A stretch of DNA of 64,000 bases from Verrucomicrobiia bacterium (lineage in GTDB: Bacteria; Verrucomicrobiota; Verrucomicrobiia; Limisphaerales; UBA1319), in the NCBI GenBank assembly GCA_963664225.1, contig OY760937.1, positions 2,048,001-2,112,000 on the forward strand, given 5' to 3'. A program made the position numbers and the translations under genes. The notes beneath the pieces were generated by a model, which was not told where the DNA came from, made no database searches, and saw only the letters and a list, made by a program, of their open reading frames with translations. Each line of letters starts with the position of its first letter. Position 1 is the stretch's first letter. Shown here one piece after another: positions 8,521-57,609 of the stretch.

Positions 8521-11397
8521 ATGAAAGTATTAGCTTTATTTAAATCGTTTTTAAGACTCAGGGTCTTATTAGTTTCTTTTTTGTTTTTGACGGTCGCCGG
8601 TTCCGCCCACGCCGCCAAAAGCATCACGCTGGCCTGGGACCCGAGCACGGATTCAAAAGTGACCGGGTATAATATTTATTACGGACCGGCTTGCGCCCAG
8701 TACACGAACCATGTCTGGGTCAGCGGCGTGGCCACCACAAACGCCACGATCAACAACCTGCTGGACGGGGTGACTTATTACTTTGCGGCCACTTCCTGCG
8801 GAAGCGCCGGGGATGAGAGCCCTTTTTCCAACGAGGTCAATTACCAGTCGGCTCCTGTGGTCACGCAACCGGTGGCTCCCAGCATCACATGGACCCAACC
8901 GGCGGCCATCGTCTATGGCACCGCGCTAAGCGCGGCACAGCTCAACGCAACAGCCAATGCTCCAGGCACTTTCACTTACAACCCGGCGCTGAATAGCGTT
9001 CTGCCCGCAGGCAATGGCCAGACCTTGACTGCGGTCTTCACGCCAACGGACCCCACGAAATACACGTCGGTCACCACCACGGTATTGCTGAACGTATCCA
9101 AGGCTCCGTTGACGATAACCGCAAACTCCGGCTCCAAGGCATACGGCGCGGCCGTGCCCGCCCTCACGGCGGTGTATTCGGGATTTGTCAATGGCAACAC
9201 AGCGGCCAGCCTGACCACACCGGTCAGCCTCTCCACCACCGCGACAGCCGCAAGCCCGATCGGCACCTATACGATCACCGCGAGCGGCGCAACCAGCCCG
9301 AACTACACCATCACCTTTGTTAATGCTTCATTGAACGTAACCCGGGCTGCTTTGACAATCGCTGCGGACGCCAAGAGCAAATGCTTCGGTGCGGCTCTGC
9401 CTGTTCTTACAGCGACCTACTCCGGATTCGTCAATGGCGACACTGCGGCCAGCCTGACCACACCGGTCAGCCTTTCCACCACCGCGACAGCCGCAAGCCC
9501 GATCGGCACTTACGCAATCACCGCCAGCGGCGCGACCAGCCCGAACTACACCATCGCCTTTGTAAATGGCTCATTGAACGTGACACCGGCGGCGCTGACG
9601 ATTGCGGCGGATGCCAAGAGCAAGACCTACGGCGCGGCTAATCCGGCTTTCACGGCGACCTACTCGGGATTCGTCAATGGCGACACCGCCGCCAGCCTGA
9701 CCACACCGGTCAGCCTTTCCACCACCGCGACAGCCGCAAGCCCGATCGGCACCTATACGATCACCGCGAGCGGCGCGACCAGCCCGAATTACACCATCGC
9801 CTTTGTAAATGGCTCATTGAACGTGACCCCGGCGGCGCTGACGATTGCGGCGGATGCCAAGAGCAAGACCTACGGGGCGGCCCTGCCTGTTCTTACGGCG
9901 ACCTACTCGGGTTTCGTCAATGGCGACACTGCGGCCAGCCTGACCACACCGGTCAGCCTGACGACAACGGCGACTGCGGCCAGCCATGTTGGCTCTTACA
10001 ACATCATTGCGACGGGTGCCGCGAGTCCGAACTACACGATTTCGTTTGCCAACAGCAGCTTGAACGTCACACCGGCAGCCCTGACCATCACCGCCAACTG
10101 CCAATCCCGGCTCGTCAATACGGCCAATCCCGCGTTGACCGCCTCTTATGCCGGATTTGTGAATGGCGAGAGCGCATCCTCCCTGACGACGCCCGTGTCA
10201 CTGACGACCACGGCCACCACCAGCAGCCCGGTCGGCACCTATCCCATTATCGCCAGCGGGGCACAGGACGCCGACTACACCATCACCCTGGTCAACGGCA
10301 CTTTGACTGTGACAGCGACTCCAGTGGCCAGCCTGGTTTCCATTGCGGTCGCACCCAACACCACCTCCTTGTTGGTTGGTCAGACCGCGCAATTCACGGC
10401 CACTGGCACCTATTCGGATGGCGCCTCGAGCAACCTGACCAGCAGAGCCTCGTGGATGACGTCGGCGGGCACGATTGCATCCGTGTCCGGCACCGGTCTG
10501 GCGACAGGCCTGACTGCAGGCAATGCCATCATCTCCGCCACCATGAGCGGGATGTCTTCAAGCGCGACTTTAACGGTCAAATCCAACACACCCAGCGGCT
10601 CGGTCACTTTGACGAGCACTGTTGCGAGGACCATTCCCACAATCGGTCTGGCCAATCCGTATGTCACCACGATCAATGCCTCAGGCCTCGCGGGCGTCCT
10701 TTCCAAGGTCACAGTGACCCTGAATGGTGTGAGCCACACCTGGCCTCACGACATCAATGCGATGCTCGTGGGACCTGCGGGACAAAAAGTCATGCTTATG
10801 CGTCATGCGGGCGGTGGGTATAAGATTAACAATATTGCAATCACCCTGGATGACGATGCCAATGTCAAAATGCCCAATTATAGCGGATTGAAAACCGGCG
10901 TTTATAAGCCGACCAATTATGGAACGATCTATAATTTCGCCTCACCCGCCCCTTCGGCTCCTTACGACACCAAGTTGTCCGTGTTCAACCGGACGAATCC
11001 CAACGGCACATGGTCCCTGTATGTGATGGATGATTCCAGCGGCGATGCAGGATCGATGGCCGGCTGGAGCCTGACCCTGACAACGACCACAACCACACTG
11101 TTGGACATTCCAATGGCGGGACCGGAACCTGAAACACCGGCGGATCTGCTGGCCGTGAAGCCGAACATCACCACGCCCCCTGCCGTATGGATCGAATCCA
11201 TTGGGTTGAACACCGACAAGCAGGCATCGCTGATCTTGAGCGGGTGCCCTGACGCCAACTACACCGTGCAATCCACCACCAACTTTGTGGATTGGTCGGA
11301 AGTTGAATCGGGCATCGTCCCGGTGGGTCAATTCACGGTGACGGATCTGCAATCAGGCCCGAACGCGGGCAAGTTTTACCGGGTCGTCGCTCCTTAA
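8521..11397 (+). CDS. Large secreted adhesin-like protein: FN3 + 5 MBG-type repeats + Ig-like (Big_2) + P-domain-like + C-terminal FYR module
   Basis: Signal peptide ending AHA; ITLAWD...GYNIYYG...YYFAAT (FN3); repeated LTI-A---SK-YG...YSGFVNGD; LVSIAVAP...QFTATGTYSDG (Big_2); NPNGTWSLYV-DD (P-domain-like). Confidence 0.88.
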   Translation: MKVLALFKSFLRLRVLLVSFLFLTVAGSAHAAKSITLAWDPSTDSKVTGYNIYYGPACAQYTNHVWVSGVATTNATINNLLDGVTYYFAATSCGSAGDESPFSNEVNYQSAPVVTQPVAPSITWTQPAAIVYGTALSAAQLNATANAPGTFTYNPALNSVLPAGNGQTLTAVFTPTDPTKYTSVTTTVLLNVSKAPLTITANSGSKAYGAAVPALTAVYSGFVNGNTAASLTTPVSLSTTATAASPIGTYTITASGATSPNYTITFVNASLNVTRAALTIAADAKSKCFGAALPVLTATYSGFVNGDTAASLTTPVSLSTTATAASPIGTYAITASGATSPNYTIAFVNGSLNVTPAALTIAADAKSKTYGAANPAFTATYSGFVNGDTAASLTTPVSLSTTATAASPIGTYTITASGATSPNYTIAFVNGSLNVTPAALTIAADAKSKTYGAALPVLTATYSGFVNGDTAASLTTPVSLTTTATAASHVGSYNIIATGAASPNYTISFANSSLNVTPAALTITANCQSRLVNTANPALTASYAGFVNGESASSLTTPVSLTTTATTSSPVGTYPIIASGAQDADYTITLVNGTLTVTATPVASLVSIAVAPNTTSLLVGQTAQFTATGTYSDGASSNLTSRASWMTSAGTIASVSGTGLATGLTAGNAIISATMSGMSSSATLTVKSNTPSGSVTLTSTVARTIPTIGLANPYVTTINASGLAGVLSKVTVTLNGVSHTWPHDINAMLVGPAGQKVMLMRHAGGGYKINNIAITLDDDANVKMPNYSGLKTGVYKPTNYGTIYNFASPAPSAPYDTKLSVFNRTNPNGTWSLYVMDDSSGDAGSMAGWSLTLTTTTTTLLDIPMAGPEPETPADLLAVKPNITTPPAVWIESIGLNTDKQASLILSGCPDANYTVQSTTNFVDWSEVESGIVPVGQFTVTDLQSGPNAGKFYRVVAP
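9100..10314 (+). repeat. Five tandem 243-bp (81-aa) intragenic repeats
   Basis: Units start at 9100, 9343, 9586, 9829 and 10072; the central units are near-identical at DNA level. Confidence 0.9.
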
Positions 11398-15461: not shown

Positions 15462-17436
15462 GTAGAGTAGGCGAAATGGACGGATTGAATGGCCGTGGCC
15501 AATGACCGTCGCATTTCGCCCCTCATCGAACCGGACAGGCGGTTTTCCCGCATCCGGCTCTCCGGGGATCATACGTTGCATCGCTTCGACGTCATCGTTT
15601 CCATGCCGCATATTCCGGCATTTGGTATAAACCATAACGCTCATAGAGATCCTCCTTGGGGTATGTGGACCATTGCGCCCGACTACATCCGTGTTTGCGC
15701 CACAACCATCGTTGTAACTTGCTGCTGACGTATTCGTTCATCTGGCCCATCACCTTGGTGCTGTTCCCGTAGTGAAAGTAACCCTTCCAACCTTTGAGTT
15801 TCTTGTTGAGCTCGGGAATCACCTCTCCGATATCACGCCATAGCGTGCTTCGGTTGAGTTTCTCCCGAATCCCGTCTCGAAACTTCTTCTGGCTCTTGGG
15901 ATGGGGTTCCACATGCGGATATTTCCATTTCCCCTTCCCCTGTCGCATTGTTAGCGCGAATCCCAAGAATTTGATGCCATCCTGGCGGAGGTCCACCAAG
16001 CGGGTCTTCTTCTCGTTGAGCACTAACTCGCGTTGCTTCAGCCATCGTTCCAGTCGTTCCATCAGTTCCCGTCCCTGCCCCGGCTGTCCGAGTATCACGA
16101 AATCATCCGCGTATCTCACCATCACGGGTTTGAGTTCGCAGCGTTCGTTGACTTCCCAATCCAACTGGTTGAGGTATGCATTGGCTAAAATCGGCGATAC
16201 AACCCCGCCTTGCGGAGTCCCCCGTCGATTCTGACCTTGCCCCCCCTTTGTCCCGCCTTTCCCTGTGTCGCTTTGCGGTTCATTCACGGGCGCGCGCAGC
16301 CATCCTGCGATCAGCTTGAGAATTGTTCCATCGCTGACCCGCTTGGCCACTATGCGCAACAAACGCCTGTGGGGAATGCTGTCAAAATACCCGCTTAAGT
16401 CCGCGTCTATAACTTCGACGCGTCCTGTCAGCGTAGCCTTCTTGATCGCCTCCATTGCTTGGTGGGCATTGCGTTTGGGATGATAGGCGTAACTGTTCGG
16501 ATGACTATCGGCTTCCAGAATCGGCAGCAATACAATCACCACCGCTGTCTGCACCACCCGGTCTTTCACTGTCGGGATGCCCAGGGGTCGCAGCTTCCCG
16601 TCTCCTTTTGGTATATACACACGCTTCACCGGGCTTGGCCGATACTTCTTCGTGCGTAACTCCTCCAGCAGTTGGTTCCGCCATTGGTCCCAGGCTTCGT
16701 CGCTGGCAAGATAGACGTCGCATGTCTGCCCGTCGATCCCAGCCGCGCCATTGTTGTGCGCCACGGAGGCCATTGCCGTTTCCAGCACGTCCTTCCGCAG
16801 CAGTTCTCCGTAGAGGCTGTAAAACCGATACTTCGGCTCAGCCTTGGCTTTGCAATATAGCGCTCGCTGCAGCTTTTGAACTTTTATCGGGGTTGTTATC
16901 CGTTGAAAAAGTGTTTCCACTCCCTCAAGGCCATCTCCCTGTCCCTCGCTGTTTTGATTCGCTTCGATCCAAGTGCCTTCCCTTGGCTCCGCCGGGGTTT
17001 TGGTCGCCCCAGCTTCTTCGCTACTATGGAAGACTCCGACTTCTCTGGCTGCCCGTGCGGCCTCGGAGGGTGTTCCTCCTTGCACCGGCGGTTGAGGCTT
17101 TATCGCCCCGCCTCCAGAGATCTCCCAGCTTACCTTGGTTTCCCTTCCTGTCGTGTCGCCCTCGCTGACTCCGCCGGAATCAACAGCGCCCATTTGACGA
17201 TTTGATGACGCCGCGTTTCTGCCTTCGCCGTTCGGGTAGCGGCTCGGCTTACCGGTTATTTCGGTTTCGGAGCTCATTTGATGAGGTTTACTTTCGTTAC
17301 GACCCGACAGTTCTTTCAGCGTCCCGCTTGTGGTTCGGCCTCACGGCCTCGTCCCGGACGCTGCATTTCGGTCGTGAACCGTCTAATTCGACCGGCGGGA
17401 CTTTCACCCACGAGGCTACCAATTTCACTGGCGCAC
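15462..17436 (-). mobile_element. Group II intron, copy 1 (1,975 nt)
   Basis: 5' GTGCG at 17436. Domain V GAGCCGGATGCGGGAAAACCGCCTGTCCGGTTC (15528-15560). Domain VI with bulged A ending CCTACTCTAC. Boundaries agree with flank divergence from copy 2. Confidence 0.96.
15592..16920 (-). CDS. ltrA: Group II intron reverse transcriptase/maturase, no endonuclease domain (start uncertain)
   Basis: YIPK...RPLGIPTVKDR, DADLSGYFDSIPH, GTPQGGVVSPILANAYL, RYADDF, FLGF, X domain GWKGYF. No C-terminal HNH. The longer frame to 17277 overlaps ribozyme domain I. Confidence 0.93.
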   Translation of the reverse strand: METLFQRITTPIKVQKLQRALYCKAKAEPKYRFYSLYGELLRKDVLETAMASVAHNNGAAGIDGQTCDVYLASDEAWDQWRNQLLEELRTKKYRPSPVKRVYIPKGDGKLRPLGIPTVKDRVVQTAVVIVLLPILEADSHPNSYAYHPKRNAHQAMEAIKKATLTGRVEVIDADLSGYFDSIPHRRLLRIVAKRVSDGTILKLIAGWLRAPVNEPQSDTGKGGTKGGQGQNRRGTPQGGVVSPILANAYLNQLDWEVNERCELKPVMVRYADDFVILGQPGQGRELMERLERWLKQRELVLNEKKTRLVDLRQDGIKFLGFALTMRQGKGKWKYPHVEPHPKSQKKFRDGIREKLNRSTLWRDIGEVIPELNKKLKGWKGYFHYGNSTKVMGQMNEYVSSKLQRWLWRKHGCSRAQWSTYPKEDLYERYGLYQMPEYAAWKR

Positions 17437-17457
17437 ACCCGAAATCCGATGAAAGGA

Positions 17458-54653: not shown

Positions 54654-55244
54654 TTACAGATTCGTTTGTTTGAGCAGTTTTTCCACGATTTTTCGCATTT
54701 CTCTTCGGGCCCGGAAGGCGCGGACCTTGACCAGTGGCACGGACCAGCCGGTGAGTTCGGCGATCTCCTTGACCGGGCGCTCCTCGATTTCGAGCAACGT
54801 CAGCACCAGACGGGCGGGCGCCGGGAGCATTGCCAGGGCGCGCTGAACCAATTCGCGGGCTCCGGTATCCTCCGGTTTGGCTTGCGCCGAGTCCTGAACG
54901 CATCGTTCGAGCCACGAATGCTCCTCCGTGGTCAATTCCGTCAGGATGGTTTCGCGGCTGCGTTGGTGGACTCGGAGGAAATCATAGCAGGTGCGCACGG
55001 CCAGTTTCATCAGCCAATGCTCGAATGGAGCCTCGCCCCGGTAACTGCTCAACCTCTGGAAAGCCTTGATAAAGACCTCCTGCACAATGTCTTCGACCTC
55101 GCTCTCCCTCCGGGCATAACGACGGGCCGTGCCAAAGATACGCGGCTGGTACTTGGCGATCAATGGCTCAAACGAAGCCGTATCGCCGTTGAGAACGGCG
55201 GCGATCAACACCGAATCCTGCTCCATGGCCGCCGGGTCTTGCAT
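54654..55244 (-). CDS. ECF RNA polymerase sigma factor
   Basis: EDIVQEVFIKAF, FEHWL, region 4 VKEIAELTGWSVPLVKVRAFRAR. Confidence 0.93.
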   Translation of the reverse strand: MQDPAAMEQDSVLIAAVLNGDTASFEPLIAKYQPRIFGTARRYARRESEVEDIVQEVFIKAFQRLSSYRGEAPFEHWLMKLAVRTCYDFLRVHQRSRETILTELTTEEHSWLERCVQDSAQAKPEDTGARELVQRALAMLPAPARLVLTLLEIEERPVKEIAELTGWSVPLVKVRAFRARREMRKIVEKLLKQTNL

Positions 55245-55270
55245 GTATTCTGATGCGCCGTTTATTTTAA

Positions 55271-57245
55271 GTAGAGTAGGCGAAATGGACGGATTGAATG
55301 GCCGTGGCCAATGACCGTCGCATTTCGCCCCTCATCGAACCGGACAGGCGGTTTTCCCGCATCCGGCTCTCCGGGGATCATACGTTGCATCGCTTCGACG
55401 TCATCGTTTCCATGCCGCATATTCCGGCATTTGGTATAAACCATAACGCTCATAGAGATCCTCCTTGGGGTATGTGGACCATTGCGCCCGACTACATCCG
55501 TGTTTGCGCCACAACCATCGTTGTAACTTGCTGCTGACGTATTCGTTCATCTGGCCCATCACCTTGGTGCTGTTCCCGTAGTGAAAGTAACCCTTCCAAC
55601 CTTTGAGTTTCTTGTTGAGCTCGGGAATCACCTCTCCGATATCACGCCATAGCGTGCTTCGGTTGAGTTTCTCCCGAATCCCGTCTCGAAACTTCTTCTG
55701 GCTCTTGGGATGGGGTTCCACATGCGGATATTTCCATTTCCCCTTCCCCTGTCGCATTGTTAGCGCGAATCCCAAGAATTTGATGCCATCCTGGCGGAGG
55801 TCCACCAAGCGGGTCTTCTTCTCGTTGAGCACTAACTCGCGTTGCTTCAGCCATCGTTCCAGTCGTTCCATCAGTTCCCGTCCCTGCCCCGGCTGTCCGA
55901 GTATCACGAAATCATCCGCGTATCTCACCATCACGGGTTTGAGTTCGCAGCGTTCGTTGACTTCCCAATCCAACTGGTTGAGGTATGCATTGGCTAAAAT
56001 CGGCGATACAACCCCGCCTTGCGGAGTCCCCCGTCGATTCTGACCTTGCCCCCCCTTTGTCCCGCCTTTCCCTGTGTCGCTTTGCGGTTCATTCACGGGC
56101 GCGCGCAGCCATCCTGCGATCAGCTTGAGAATTGTTCCATCGCTGACCCGCTTGGCCACTATGCGCAACAAACGCCTGTGGGGAATGCTGTCAAAATACC
56201 CGCTTAAGTCCGCGTCTATAACTTCGACGCGTCCTGTCAGCGTAGCCTTCTTGATCGCCTCCATTGCTTGGTGGGCATTGCGTTTGGGATGATAGGCGTA
56301 ACTGTTCGGATGACTATCGGCTTCCAGAATCGGCAGCAATACAATCACCACCGCTGTCTGCACCACCCGGTCTTTCACTGTCGGGATGCCCAGGGGTCGC
56401 AGCTTCCCGTCTCCTTTTGGTATATACACACGCTTCACCGGGCTTGGCCGATACTTCTTCGTGCGTAACTCCTCCAGCAGTTGGTTCCGCCATTGGTCCC
56501 AGGCTTCGTCGCTGGCAAGATAGACGTCGCATGTCTGCCCGTCGATCCCAGCCGCGCCATTGTTGTGCGCCACGGAGGCCATTGCCGTTTCCAGCACGTC
56601 CTTCCGCAGCAGTTCTCCGTAGAGGCTGTAAAACCGATACTTCGGCTCAGCCTTGGCTTTGCAATATAGCGCTCGCTGCAGCTTTTGAACTTTTATCGGG
56701 GTTGTTATCCGTTGAAAAAGTGTTTCCACTCCCTCAAGGCCATCTCCCTGTCCCTCGCTGTTTTGATTCGCTTCGATCCAAGTGCCTTCCCTTGGCTCCG
56801 CCGGGGTTTTGGTCGCCCCAGCTTCTTCGCTACTATGGAAGACTCCGACTTCTCTGGCTGCCCGTGCGGCCTCGGAGGGTGTTCCTCCTTGCACCGGCGG
56901 TTGAGGCTTTATCGCCCCGCCTCCAGAGATCTCCCAGCTTACCTTGGTTTCCCTTCCTGTCGTGTCGCCCTCGCTGACTCCGCCGGAATCAACAGCGCCC
57001 ATTTGACGATTTGATGACGCCGCGTTTCTGCCTTCGCCGTTCGGGTAGCGGCTCGGCTTACCGGTTATTTCGGTTTCGGAGCTCATTTGATGAGGTTTAC
57101 TTTCGTTACGACCCGACAGTTCTTTCAGCGTCCCGCTTGTGGTTCGGCCTCACGGCCTCGTCCCGGACGCTGCATTTCGGTCGTGAACCGTCTAATTCGA
57201 CCGGCGGGACTTTCACCCACGAGGCTACCAATTTCACTGGCGCAC
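55271..57245 (-). mobile_element. Group II intron, copy 2 (1,975 nt)
   Basis: Same ends, domains V/VI and translated ORF as copy 1, at a constant offset of 39,809 nt. Confidence 0.96.
55401..56729 (-). CDS. ltrA: Group II intron reverse transcriptase/maturase, copy 2 (start uncertain)
   Basis: Translation identical to copy 1; YADD; no endonuclease domain. Confidence 0.93.
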   Translation of the reverse strand: METLFQRITTPIKVQKLQRALYCKAKAEPKYRFYSLYGELLRKDVLETAMASVAHNNGAAGIDGQTCDVYLASDEAWDQWRNQLLEELRTKKYRPSPVKRVYIPKGDGKLRPLGIPTVKDRVVQTAVVIVLLPILEADSHPNSYAYHPKRNAHQAMEAIKKATLTGRVEVIDADLSGYFDSIPHRRLLRIVAKRVSDGTILKLIAGWLRAPVNEPQSDTGKGGTKGGQGQNRRGTPQGGVVSPILANAYLNQLDWEVNERCELKPVMVRYADDFVILGQPGQGRELMERLERWLKQRELVLNEKKTRLVDLRQDGIKFLGFALTMRQGKGKWKYPHVEPHPKSQKKFRDGIREKLNRSTLWRDIGEVIPELNKKLKGWKGYFHYGNSTKVMGQMNEYVSSKLQRWLWRKHGCSRAQWSTYPKEDLYERYGLYQMPEYAAWKR

Positions 57246-57409
57246 ACCCGAAATCCGAAATAGGAACGGCCCATCTGACGCAATCATTTGGCCATCCATG
57301 GTTTGAAACCGGCTGTGGAGTATTGATTTAATACACCTTCGCCGATTGCAAATCATGGCTGTCTCAAAGCATTGCATCGTCTTGACCATTCTTATTTCGG
57401 ATTTCGGGT
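57246..57409. repeat. 164-bp foldback (MITE/REPIN-like) element, the target of intron copy 2
   Basis: Perfect 17-bp terminal inverted repeat ACCCGAAATCCGAAATA / TATTTCGGATTTCGGGT; pairing continues in register to a central GTATT/AATAC. Confidence 0.85.
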
Positions 57410-57609
57410 TAAAACAAAAACAGGACGCATCCCGCCCTGAATTTATTCAGGATGAGGTCCTTATACTCCGATTGTGATCCGCAACCAATCCCATTGTCAC
57501 GGCATTCACCGTTTGTGCATTCAAGCAGATTAACACCGCTCTCGGTCAAAAGTATCGCCTGCGCCTGCCCCAAACCCGCATGCAGCCAACGCCTTCCGCA
57601 AAAACATTC

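Follow-up and report, generated by a model that had tools for sequence, protein, structure and literature searches.

The closest described counterpart of the element studied here is RmInt2, a class D group II intron of Sinorhizobium meliloti GR4. Extracts of the 2014 report place all of its copies in the inverted repeats (IR) of the insertion sequence (IS) ISRm17, with two sites per IS on opposite replication strands and homing biased to the lagging-strand template (PMC4615759). The same extracts note that this arrangement doubles the number of targets and ensures that one of them lies on the lagging strand, and the intron-binding site (IBS) region from -14 to +1 is said to derive from the IR (PMC4615759). 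In the available text of a review from 2015, bacterial introns are given three kinds of target specificity, namely homing sites, terminators and attC sites (PMC4424553). Here we describe a group II intron that occurs twice in a 64,000-nt stretch of the genome of a Verrucomicrobiia bacterium (contig OY760937.1, positions 2,048,001 to 2,112,000; hereafter the window) and that sits at the ends of a MITE (miniature inverted-repeat transposable element) and of a related IS. This endonuclease-less, IIB-like intron very probably homes, guided by its RNA, to the junction between an IS1380-type tip and the target-site duplication, on the lagging-strand template.

The genome around the window is 5.78 Mb in one contig. 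Rfam models identified two complete group II introns in the window, both on the minus strand, with RF02005 covering domains D1-D4 and RF00029 covering D5-D6. RF00029 scored 49.3 bits (gathering threshold 40), and RF02005 scored 54.9 bits (gathering threshold 49), only 6 bits above its threshold. The limits of the introns were set by comparing the flanks of all 19 copies in the genome.

55271..57245, minus strand: group II intron copy 2, 1975 nt, 5' end GTGCG, 3' end CTCTAC, matched by RF02005 and RF00029.
15462..17436, minus strand: group II intron copy 1, at a 13-nt tip remnant (17437-17449), without MITE or IS.

The preliminary description of this DNA had correctly called the intron but started the feature at 55261, which takes in 10 nt of the 3' exon; the true limit is 55271. 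It had also given the two copies a common 5' exon followed by different 3' exons, TTAAAA at copy 2 and TAAATC at copy 1, and this was borne out. The intron ends, GTGCG and ...TAC, agree with the 5' GUGYG and 3' AY pattern of mobile group II introns. The two window introns are identical, and the genome holds 19 full-length copies that are 100% identical over 1975 nt. On the 5' side all 19 read ...TCGGA(T/G)TTCGGGT and on the 3' side T(A/T)A, the 3' exon starting with TAAA in 10/19 copies and with TTAA in 9/19. By site, MITE tips hold 13 introns, IS tips 4, and tip remnants of 13-16 nt the other 2. Both arms of the palindrome are used, as had been proposed: left-type arms hold 5 of the MITE-tip introns and right-type arms 8. 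By chance the 13-mer TCGGATTTCGGGT would be expected 0.18 times in the window; it is found three times, on the minus strand at 17437-17449 and 57246-57258 and on the plus strand at 57397-57409, and 0/100 shuffles reached three. Over 400 nt, the 5' exon flank of copy 1 has no second copy in the genome, and within ~5 kb of it no inverted tip was found.

At copy 2 the intron abuts a small palindromic element.

57247..57408, strand not applicable: MITE CCCGAAATCC...GGATTTCGGG, 162 bp, a non-coding imperfect palindrome.
57409..57413, plus strand: right target-site duplication TTAAA, with an unoccupied homing site between 57409 and 57410 on the plus strand.
55267..55270, plus strand: left target-site duplication, TTAA here plus A at 57246, split by the intron after its first base in the minus-strand reading.

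The 164-bp foldback reported earlier is real, with arms (57246-57290 and 57365-57409) that are 78% complementary, but the element proper is 162 bp. Two MITE copies with TTTAT and TTGAG duplications fix the element start at CCCG, and the outermost A/T of the 164-bp foldback therefore belongs to the target duplication. A dispersed family of non-coding palindromes had been predicted and was recovered, comprising 18 full copies, 3 split copies, 1 nearly complete copy and 3 fragments, with 92.7-100% identity. After in-silico removal of the introns, a perfect 5-bp duplication, mostly TTTAA or TTAAA, flanks 18/21 complete copies; the other three show one 4-bp duplication, one 4/5 match and one mismatch.

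The likely autonomous partner of the MITE is a 1533-bp IS present in 5 identical copies. The IS carries one open reading frame (ORF) of 473 aa, a transposase that matches NF033539 (IS1380) with 227 bits (cut-off 180) and also PF13701. IS1380-family elements have terminal inverted repeats and a 4-5 bp target duplication. The present IS has the tip CCCGAACTCCGA at both ends and a 5-bp TTWAA duplication at 5/5 copies, and its tip differs from the MITE tip CCCGAAATCCGA at 1/12 positions. The 162-bp element is small, non-coding and multi-copy, with tips like those of the IS and the same duplication, and thus fits the description of a MITE. Apart from ~13 nt, the two ends of the IS, ~1.5 kb apart, have nothing in common, and 4/5 IS copies carry the intron at one end.

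Several further repeats lie around these elements. Three MITEs (G000:C1:828002-831676, 2984654-2988329 and 264553-266581) are split at the same central TTTAA/TTAAA. Two of them are interrupted by the IS1380-family IS carrying the intron, giving three nested mobile elements, and the third by an 1858-bp element, unrelated, whose ends are GCACTTTACCCC. For the intron at 3974269, the 5' flank (G000:C1:3973869-3974268, with matches at ~20 other places) consists of further dispersed repeat families. One has a 66-80-nt unit, often in inverted pairs ~2.5 kb apart, and another a ~140-nt unit that is truncated where the 16-nt transposon tip begins.

Occupied and empty targets were then tabulated against replication polarity. 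The intron occupies 19 of the 50 perfect targets, of the form TCGGA[TG]TTCGGGTT, that the genome offers once its introns are removed. The direction of the forks was deduced, without use of the introns, from a strand-skewed motif and GC skew rather than by measurement. The most strand-skewed 8-mer of the genome is GGGCAGGG. The motif GGGNAGGG, which we take to be the E. coli consensus of the FtsK-orienting polar sequence (KOPS), is strongly skewed to the plus strand from ~3.4 Mb through 0 to 1.5 Mb and to the minus strand from 1.5 to 2.3 Mb, with mixed usage between. The polarity it gives agrees with GC skew wherever GC skew is not flat, and both 16S genes lie on the plus strand in the plus zone. 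Zones were considered clear when the local GGGNAGGG skew, taken 150 kb either side, had a binomial p < 0.01, and 42 targets qualified.

In the clear zones the intron occupies 18/23 targets on the motif-bearing strand vs 0/19 on the other strand (Fisher 1.1e-7). The bias predicted in the preliminary description is thus complete. Because the motif-rich strand has the sequence of the leading strand, it is the strand that serves as lagging-strand template. Fifteen elements combine a single intron with two perfect tips, and in 15/15 the intron is at the favored tip; no element has both tips occupied. That one target per element always lies on the favored strand is an idea that extracts of the RmInt2 report show to be already in print (PMC4615759). 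The window lies in a minus zone, which accounts for both copies being on the minus strand and for the empty twin target on the plus strand. That twin had been correctly noted: the tip at 57397-57409 is intact and followed by T, and the site at 57409/57410 is on the disfavored strand of its zone.

Replication polarity looks very lopsided along the chromosome. Between 1.8 and 3.6 Mb GC skew is nearly flat, dnaA and dnaN lie 82 kb apart, and the polarity switch is near 1.5 Mb. The best DnaA-box clusters, at 2,892,523 and 783,097, tie with 5 boxes each.

A strand bias of this kind might also come from transcription or selection, for example if only copies co-oriented with genes were expressed or tolerated. 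We consider this improbable. It gains some credit because the direction of replication is inferred only, because the intron needs transcription from outside, no promoter having been found in the MITE, and because a terminator-like hairpin immediately precedes the window copy, which is closely followed by a co-oriented gene resembling that of an extracytoplasmic function (ECF) sigma factor. However, long ORFs use the plus strand at 33-61% per 200-kb bin, which is far too weak a preference to yield 18/18 agreement and 0/19 on the other strand. The bias instead follows the switch in KOPS-like and GC-skew polarity near 1.5 Mb. Moreover, an endonuclease-less IEP (intron-encoded protein) needs a primer from the host, as extracts on RmInt1 and RmInt2 describe as established (PMC4615759).

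The immediate surroundings of copy 2 are as follows. The MITE and its intron lie between the terminator-like hairpin of an upstream minus-strand gene (window 57417-57439, minus) and a co-oriented ORF (window 54654-55244, minus). The start codon of this ORF is 26 nt from the 3' end of the intron, and its product resembles an ECF sigma factor by eye. Read-through in either direction could couple the intron with its flanking genes.

To define what the intron reads at its target, its exon-binding sites (EBS) were compared with those of five relatives from other genomes, which share 77-79% nucleotide identity with it and have very different 5' exons.

57041..57046, minus strand: EBS1, ACCCGA, pairing with 5' exon positions -6..-1 (TCGGGT), in the terminal loop of a hairpin modelled by RF02005.
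57065..57076, minus strand: candidate EBS2, the internal loop AAACCGAAAUAA, unpaired in the RF02005 consensus and immediately 5' of the EBS1 hairpin.
56975..56975, minus strand: candidate EBS3 (A271), pairing with the +1 T.

In 5/5 relatives with a known exon, the EBS1 hexamer is perfectly complementary to the six bases that end the 5' exon. The loop AAACCGAAAUAA can form nine contiguous pairs with TTATTTCGG (positions -18..-10 of right-type MITE arms). Elsewhere the candidate EBS2 forms 8 pairs with left-type arms, 4-5 contiguous pairs with IS tips and 4 with the copy 1 remnant, where the minimum is TCGG. The candidate EBS3 column is the only one of 352 alignment columns with A in the four relatives that have a 3' exon T and T in L017, which has exon A; L014, for which one exon base is known, is among the sequences with A there. 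In two relatives, L013 and L015 from differently labelled metagenome-assembled genomes, the exons share the end GTTTTCAGG(T/A) and EBS1 carries the matching one-base change, a small example of retargeting.

The preliminary description had taken the palindrome itself as the parasitized target. MITE tips are indeed occupied, and 13/19 introns lie at them, but what is recognized is the tip with bases of the duplication, since 4/5 IS copies and two remnants are occupied as well. An alternative is that the intron recognizes the hairpin formed by the palindromic DNA, as IIC introns do with terminator or attC stem-loops, the shared sequence being secondary. Several features are compatible with it: the MITE folds strongly as single-stranded DNA (-40.4 kcal/mol, z = -7.2; 0/200 shuffles fold as well), the insertion is at the 3' foot of the stem, and short inverted repeats can be seen by eye in the 5' exons of some relatives. 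Among PDB sequences the IEP best matches 7uim (183 bits) and 6ar1 (166 bits), which are deposited as group II intron reverse transcriptases (RT) and which we presume to be IIC, but they score only slightly above T.el4h (160 bits). Against a hairpin stand the four occupied copies of the 1.5-kb IS, whose distant ends share ~13 nt, and the two occupied sites that have only 13-16 nt of tip, no partner arm nearby and otherwise unrelated sequence. A hairpin would lock IBS1 and IBS2 away in its stem, and EBS1 is 6 bp long and covaries with its target. Recognition of a hairpin is therefore highly improbable. Since tips and remnants are occupied where no partner arm is near, the hairpin is not the recognized feature; the intron recognizes the IS1380-family tip sequence plus the first bases of the target duplication, through RNA pairing.

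The exact point of insertion bears on whether the intron travels as cargo of the transposon. One nucleotide separates the intron from the element, with the duplication cut between its first two bases (...GGG-T|T(W)AA), and taking the intron out restores TTAAA on both sides of the MITE. The duplication is whole only without the intron, which therefore came in later than the element. Joint movement of MITE or IS and intron by the transposase has in its favor that the intron always abuts an element, and IS1380-family members such as ISEcp1 can mobilize adjacent DNA by one-ended transposition. However, it is the element, not the composite, that has the duplication at its two sides, and the intron splits that duplication; none of the 17 element-associated copies shows a fresh 5-bp duplication around the whole composite. 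Identical introns abut MITEs that differ by up to ~7%, and either arm can be occupied, with the choice tracking replication polarity. We rate cargo movement lower still than hairpin recognition. As the introns are identical and the MITEs have diverged down to 92.7% identity, the intron invaded pre-existing elements, and this points to a recent burst of the intron into older elements. Copying from MITE to MITE by DNA recombination or gene conversion, the least likely of the alternatives, could draw on up to ~160 bp of homology in the MITE arm on the 5' side, but the common sequence on the 3' side, T(W)A(A), is too short for homologous exchange, IS tips and remnants sharing 13-16 nt are also occupied, and no strand bias tied to replication polarity would be predicted.

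The class of the intron was examined through its protein and its ribozyme.

55401..56726, minus strand: IEP with RT and maturase (X) domains, no endonuclease domain, matched by PF00078 and PF08388 only.

The IEP matches TIGR04416 with 357 bits (cut-off 300), and YADD is present in its translation. A domain scan of the IEP identified only RVT_1 and GIIM and no DNA-binding and endonuclease (D/En, HNH) region, GIIM ending at residue 536 of 561. The open frame extends up to 57086, but coding constraint begins only near intron position 520, where the excess of variation at third codon positions among related introns starts. With coding from about there, ~650 nt are left as ribozyme. Upstream of the conserved coding part the RT frame is open for at least 120 codons in 6/6 related introns, across ribozyme domains I-III. 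Within this stretch (intron positions ~54-519; window ~56727-57192, minus strand) an ATG occurs at position 160/161 in 6/6 related introns. Since its variable sites show no codon-position bias, the upstream extension of the frame is probably untranslated or not under selection as protein.

Two classes were considered and rejected. Assignment to group IIC is at odds with the 6-bp covarying EBS1, the EBS2-type loop, the ~650-nt ribozyme and the occupied tips and remnants that have no partner arm; the earlier view that this is a non-IIC intron therefore stands. Assignment to class D is at odds with the absence of the C-terminal motif, the 32% IEP identity to RmInt1 and the match to RF02005 rather than RF01999. 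RmInt1, taken from pSymA, matches RF01999 and bears the class D C-terminal motif. We take the signature of that class to be LX3AX3PXLF. That class D has a C-terminal signature is stated in an excerpt of PMC3552965. Relatives from Nitrobacter hamburgensis and Bradyrhizobium, with ~40% IEP identity, match RF02003 and not RF02005. N. hamburgensis carries introns that the available text assigns to class F (PMC3552965), and these may include the copy compared here. PDB scores, Rfam sub-families and comparison with RmInt1 and a second pSymA intron gave no named class for the IEP. On sequence grounds the intron is neither IIC nor class D, but IIB-like and endonuclease-less.

Related genomes and metagenomes were searched for the same pairing of intron and transposon. 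The MITE was found in 0/30 related genomes, and none of the 30, including a genome of the same genus (93% complete, 230 contigs), holds the present intron. One of them (G005) has a 68%-identical 3' part of the intron. Two metagenome contigs carry an intron of ~75% nucleotide identity at the same tip. In one of these, an IS end serves as the 5' exon, and the C-terminus of the transposase of that IS shares 80% identity with the one encoded by the present IS. On the tentative wider view set out below, a ~75%-identical intron on such an IS would mean that the intron-IS pairing has lasted while both partners diverged. A metagenome scan with a 26-nt junction word gave 0 matches, and one with a 19-nt word gave 13, of which 11 were not introns. 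A contig from run X9 has an intron ~95% alike, with a 5' exon in common for 15 nt and then a different context. In the RNA runs only 0.05-0.07 of the words matched.

Some results weigh against homing as proposed here. Contigs from four sequencing runs contain no joint across the intron, and so neither spliced RNA nor an empty allele was seen. A promoter scan of the MITE found no outward sigma-70-like promoter. The candidate EBS2 shows no covariation in L013-L017, nor in L112 and L115, which share the target. Five favored-strand targets are empty, 3 of them with no visible defect. The ambiguous zone holds 8 targets, of which one is occupied (2986269) and 7 are empty. The origin is not pinned by skew, which is mixed from 2.3 to 3.4 Mb, a zone that includes dnaA at 2.99 Mb, dnaN at 2.91 Mb and, at 2.89 Mb, a DnaA-box cluster. 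With an origin near 2.9 Mb the implied replichores would be very unequal (~1.4 vs ~4.4 Mb), which is odd.

The mechanism that we propose builds on what the sequence shows, namely the anatomy, copy number and target of the intron, the covariation of EBS1 and the strand bias. The homing site is the junction of the outer IS1380-family inverted-repeat tip, of IS or MITE, and the TT that opens the TTWAA duplication. It would be read by base pairing, EBS1 with positions -6..-1, the EBS2-type loop with -10 to at most -18, and EBS3 with +1. The intron would reverse splice into the strand serving as lagging-strand template at a passing fork. By analogy with RmInt1 and RmInt2, cDNA synthesis would then presumably be primed by the nascent lagging strand, as the protein has no nuclease. 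Because each element bears the same tip on both strands, every transposition would yield one site in the usable orientation, and the intron, being placed outside the repeat, would leave its host element intact. The intron would still be active at present and would be transcribed from outside.

A wider view may be drawn from this scheme, which we hold tentatively and with rather more doubt than confidence. The homing site would not exist until a transposon lands, being put together from an IS1380-family end, of which it would take at least the last 12 nt, and the two T that open TTWAA. The intron would then be a second-order parasite, fed with fresh, harmless sites in both orientations and never disabling its supplier. 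As a bolder extension, one-ended transposition of the IS could carry an adjacent intron to new replicons.

The genome amounts to an experiment of nature on homing in two orientations. Both strands present the same target, a few hundred bases apart, at each of 15 loci, and only the one on the lagging-strand template has been taken. This pattern measures the chromosomal strand bias of an endonuclease-less intron free of the confounding effect of target availability. A homing site can thus span the junction of a transposon and its target duplication, and the spread of the intron is thereby tied to the history of transposition. For annotation, intron orientation is a marker of replication polarity where GC skew is partly flat. 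Elsewhere in the window, four tandem 243-bp units that are 67-81% alike occupy positions 9089-10117.

A literature search found no report of a group II intron homing at MITE ends or IS1380 ends, and none at terminal inverted repeats beyond RmInt2 and ISRm17. Excerpts on group IIC introns describe them as endonuclease-less and as inserting beside inverted-repeat DNA in intergenic or mobile contexts (PMC4424553), features that the present intron shares insofar as it is endonuclease-less and lies beside inverted-repeat DNA. IIC introns have no EBS2 and lack part of EBS1, and use a stem-loop motif, according to extracts of two further papers (PMC3753933, PMC7923331). In contrast, the present intron has a 6-bp covarying EBS1, an EBS2-type loop and a ribozyme of ~650 nt, and it needs no partner arm. 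The available text describes the IIE and IIF lineages as IIB-like, with an IEP that lacks an endonuclease and ribozymes 450-700 nt long that carry EBS1 and EBS2 in domain Id (PMC3753933). The present IIB-like ribozyme of ~650 nt falls within that range and above IIC.

RmInt1 resembles the present intron in being endonuclease-less, in living in a multi-copy IS and in preferring the lagging-strand template, as far as the extracts describe it (PMC4615759). RmInt1 is of class D/IIB3, and its natural homing site is given in abstracts and extracts as ISRm2011-2. The two introns differ in the placement of their sites, the present one being at the tip, in both orientations, with the IS intact. For RmInt1 the site is inside ISRm2011-2, in one orientation per element, and the IS is interrupted.

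The likeness to RmInt2, as described in the extracts, is closer. Both introns are endonuclease-less, with all copies identical (7 for RmInt2, 19 here). Both have their target in the terminal inverted repeat of an IS, with two sites on opposite strands and a bias to the lagging-strand template, and both tolerate a 4-bp EBS2/IBS2 pairing. The present intron, however, is of another lineage, with 32% IEP identity to RmInt1, no class D motif and a match to RF02005 and not RF01999. Its IS is of the IS1380 family, and most of its sites are on a MITE derivative. Its site spans tip and duplication, with the intron 1 nt outside the element, and its bias is inferred from genome polarity, not assayed. The principle of homing to IS inverted repeats, with one site on the lagging-strand template, has already been published for RmInt2 and ISRm17. 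A strategy of the RmInt2 type has thus arisen in an intron lineage unrelated to RmInt2, and it reaches MITEs as well. New here are the lineage of the intron, the family of the IS, the fact that a MITE is used, a site that spans tip and duplication, and a clean two-orientation natural experiment.

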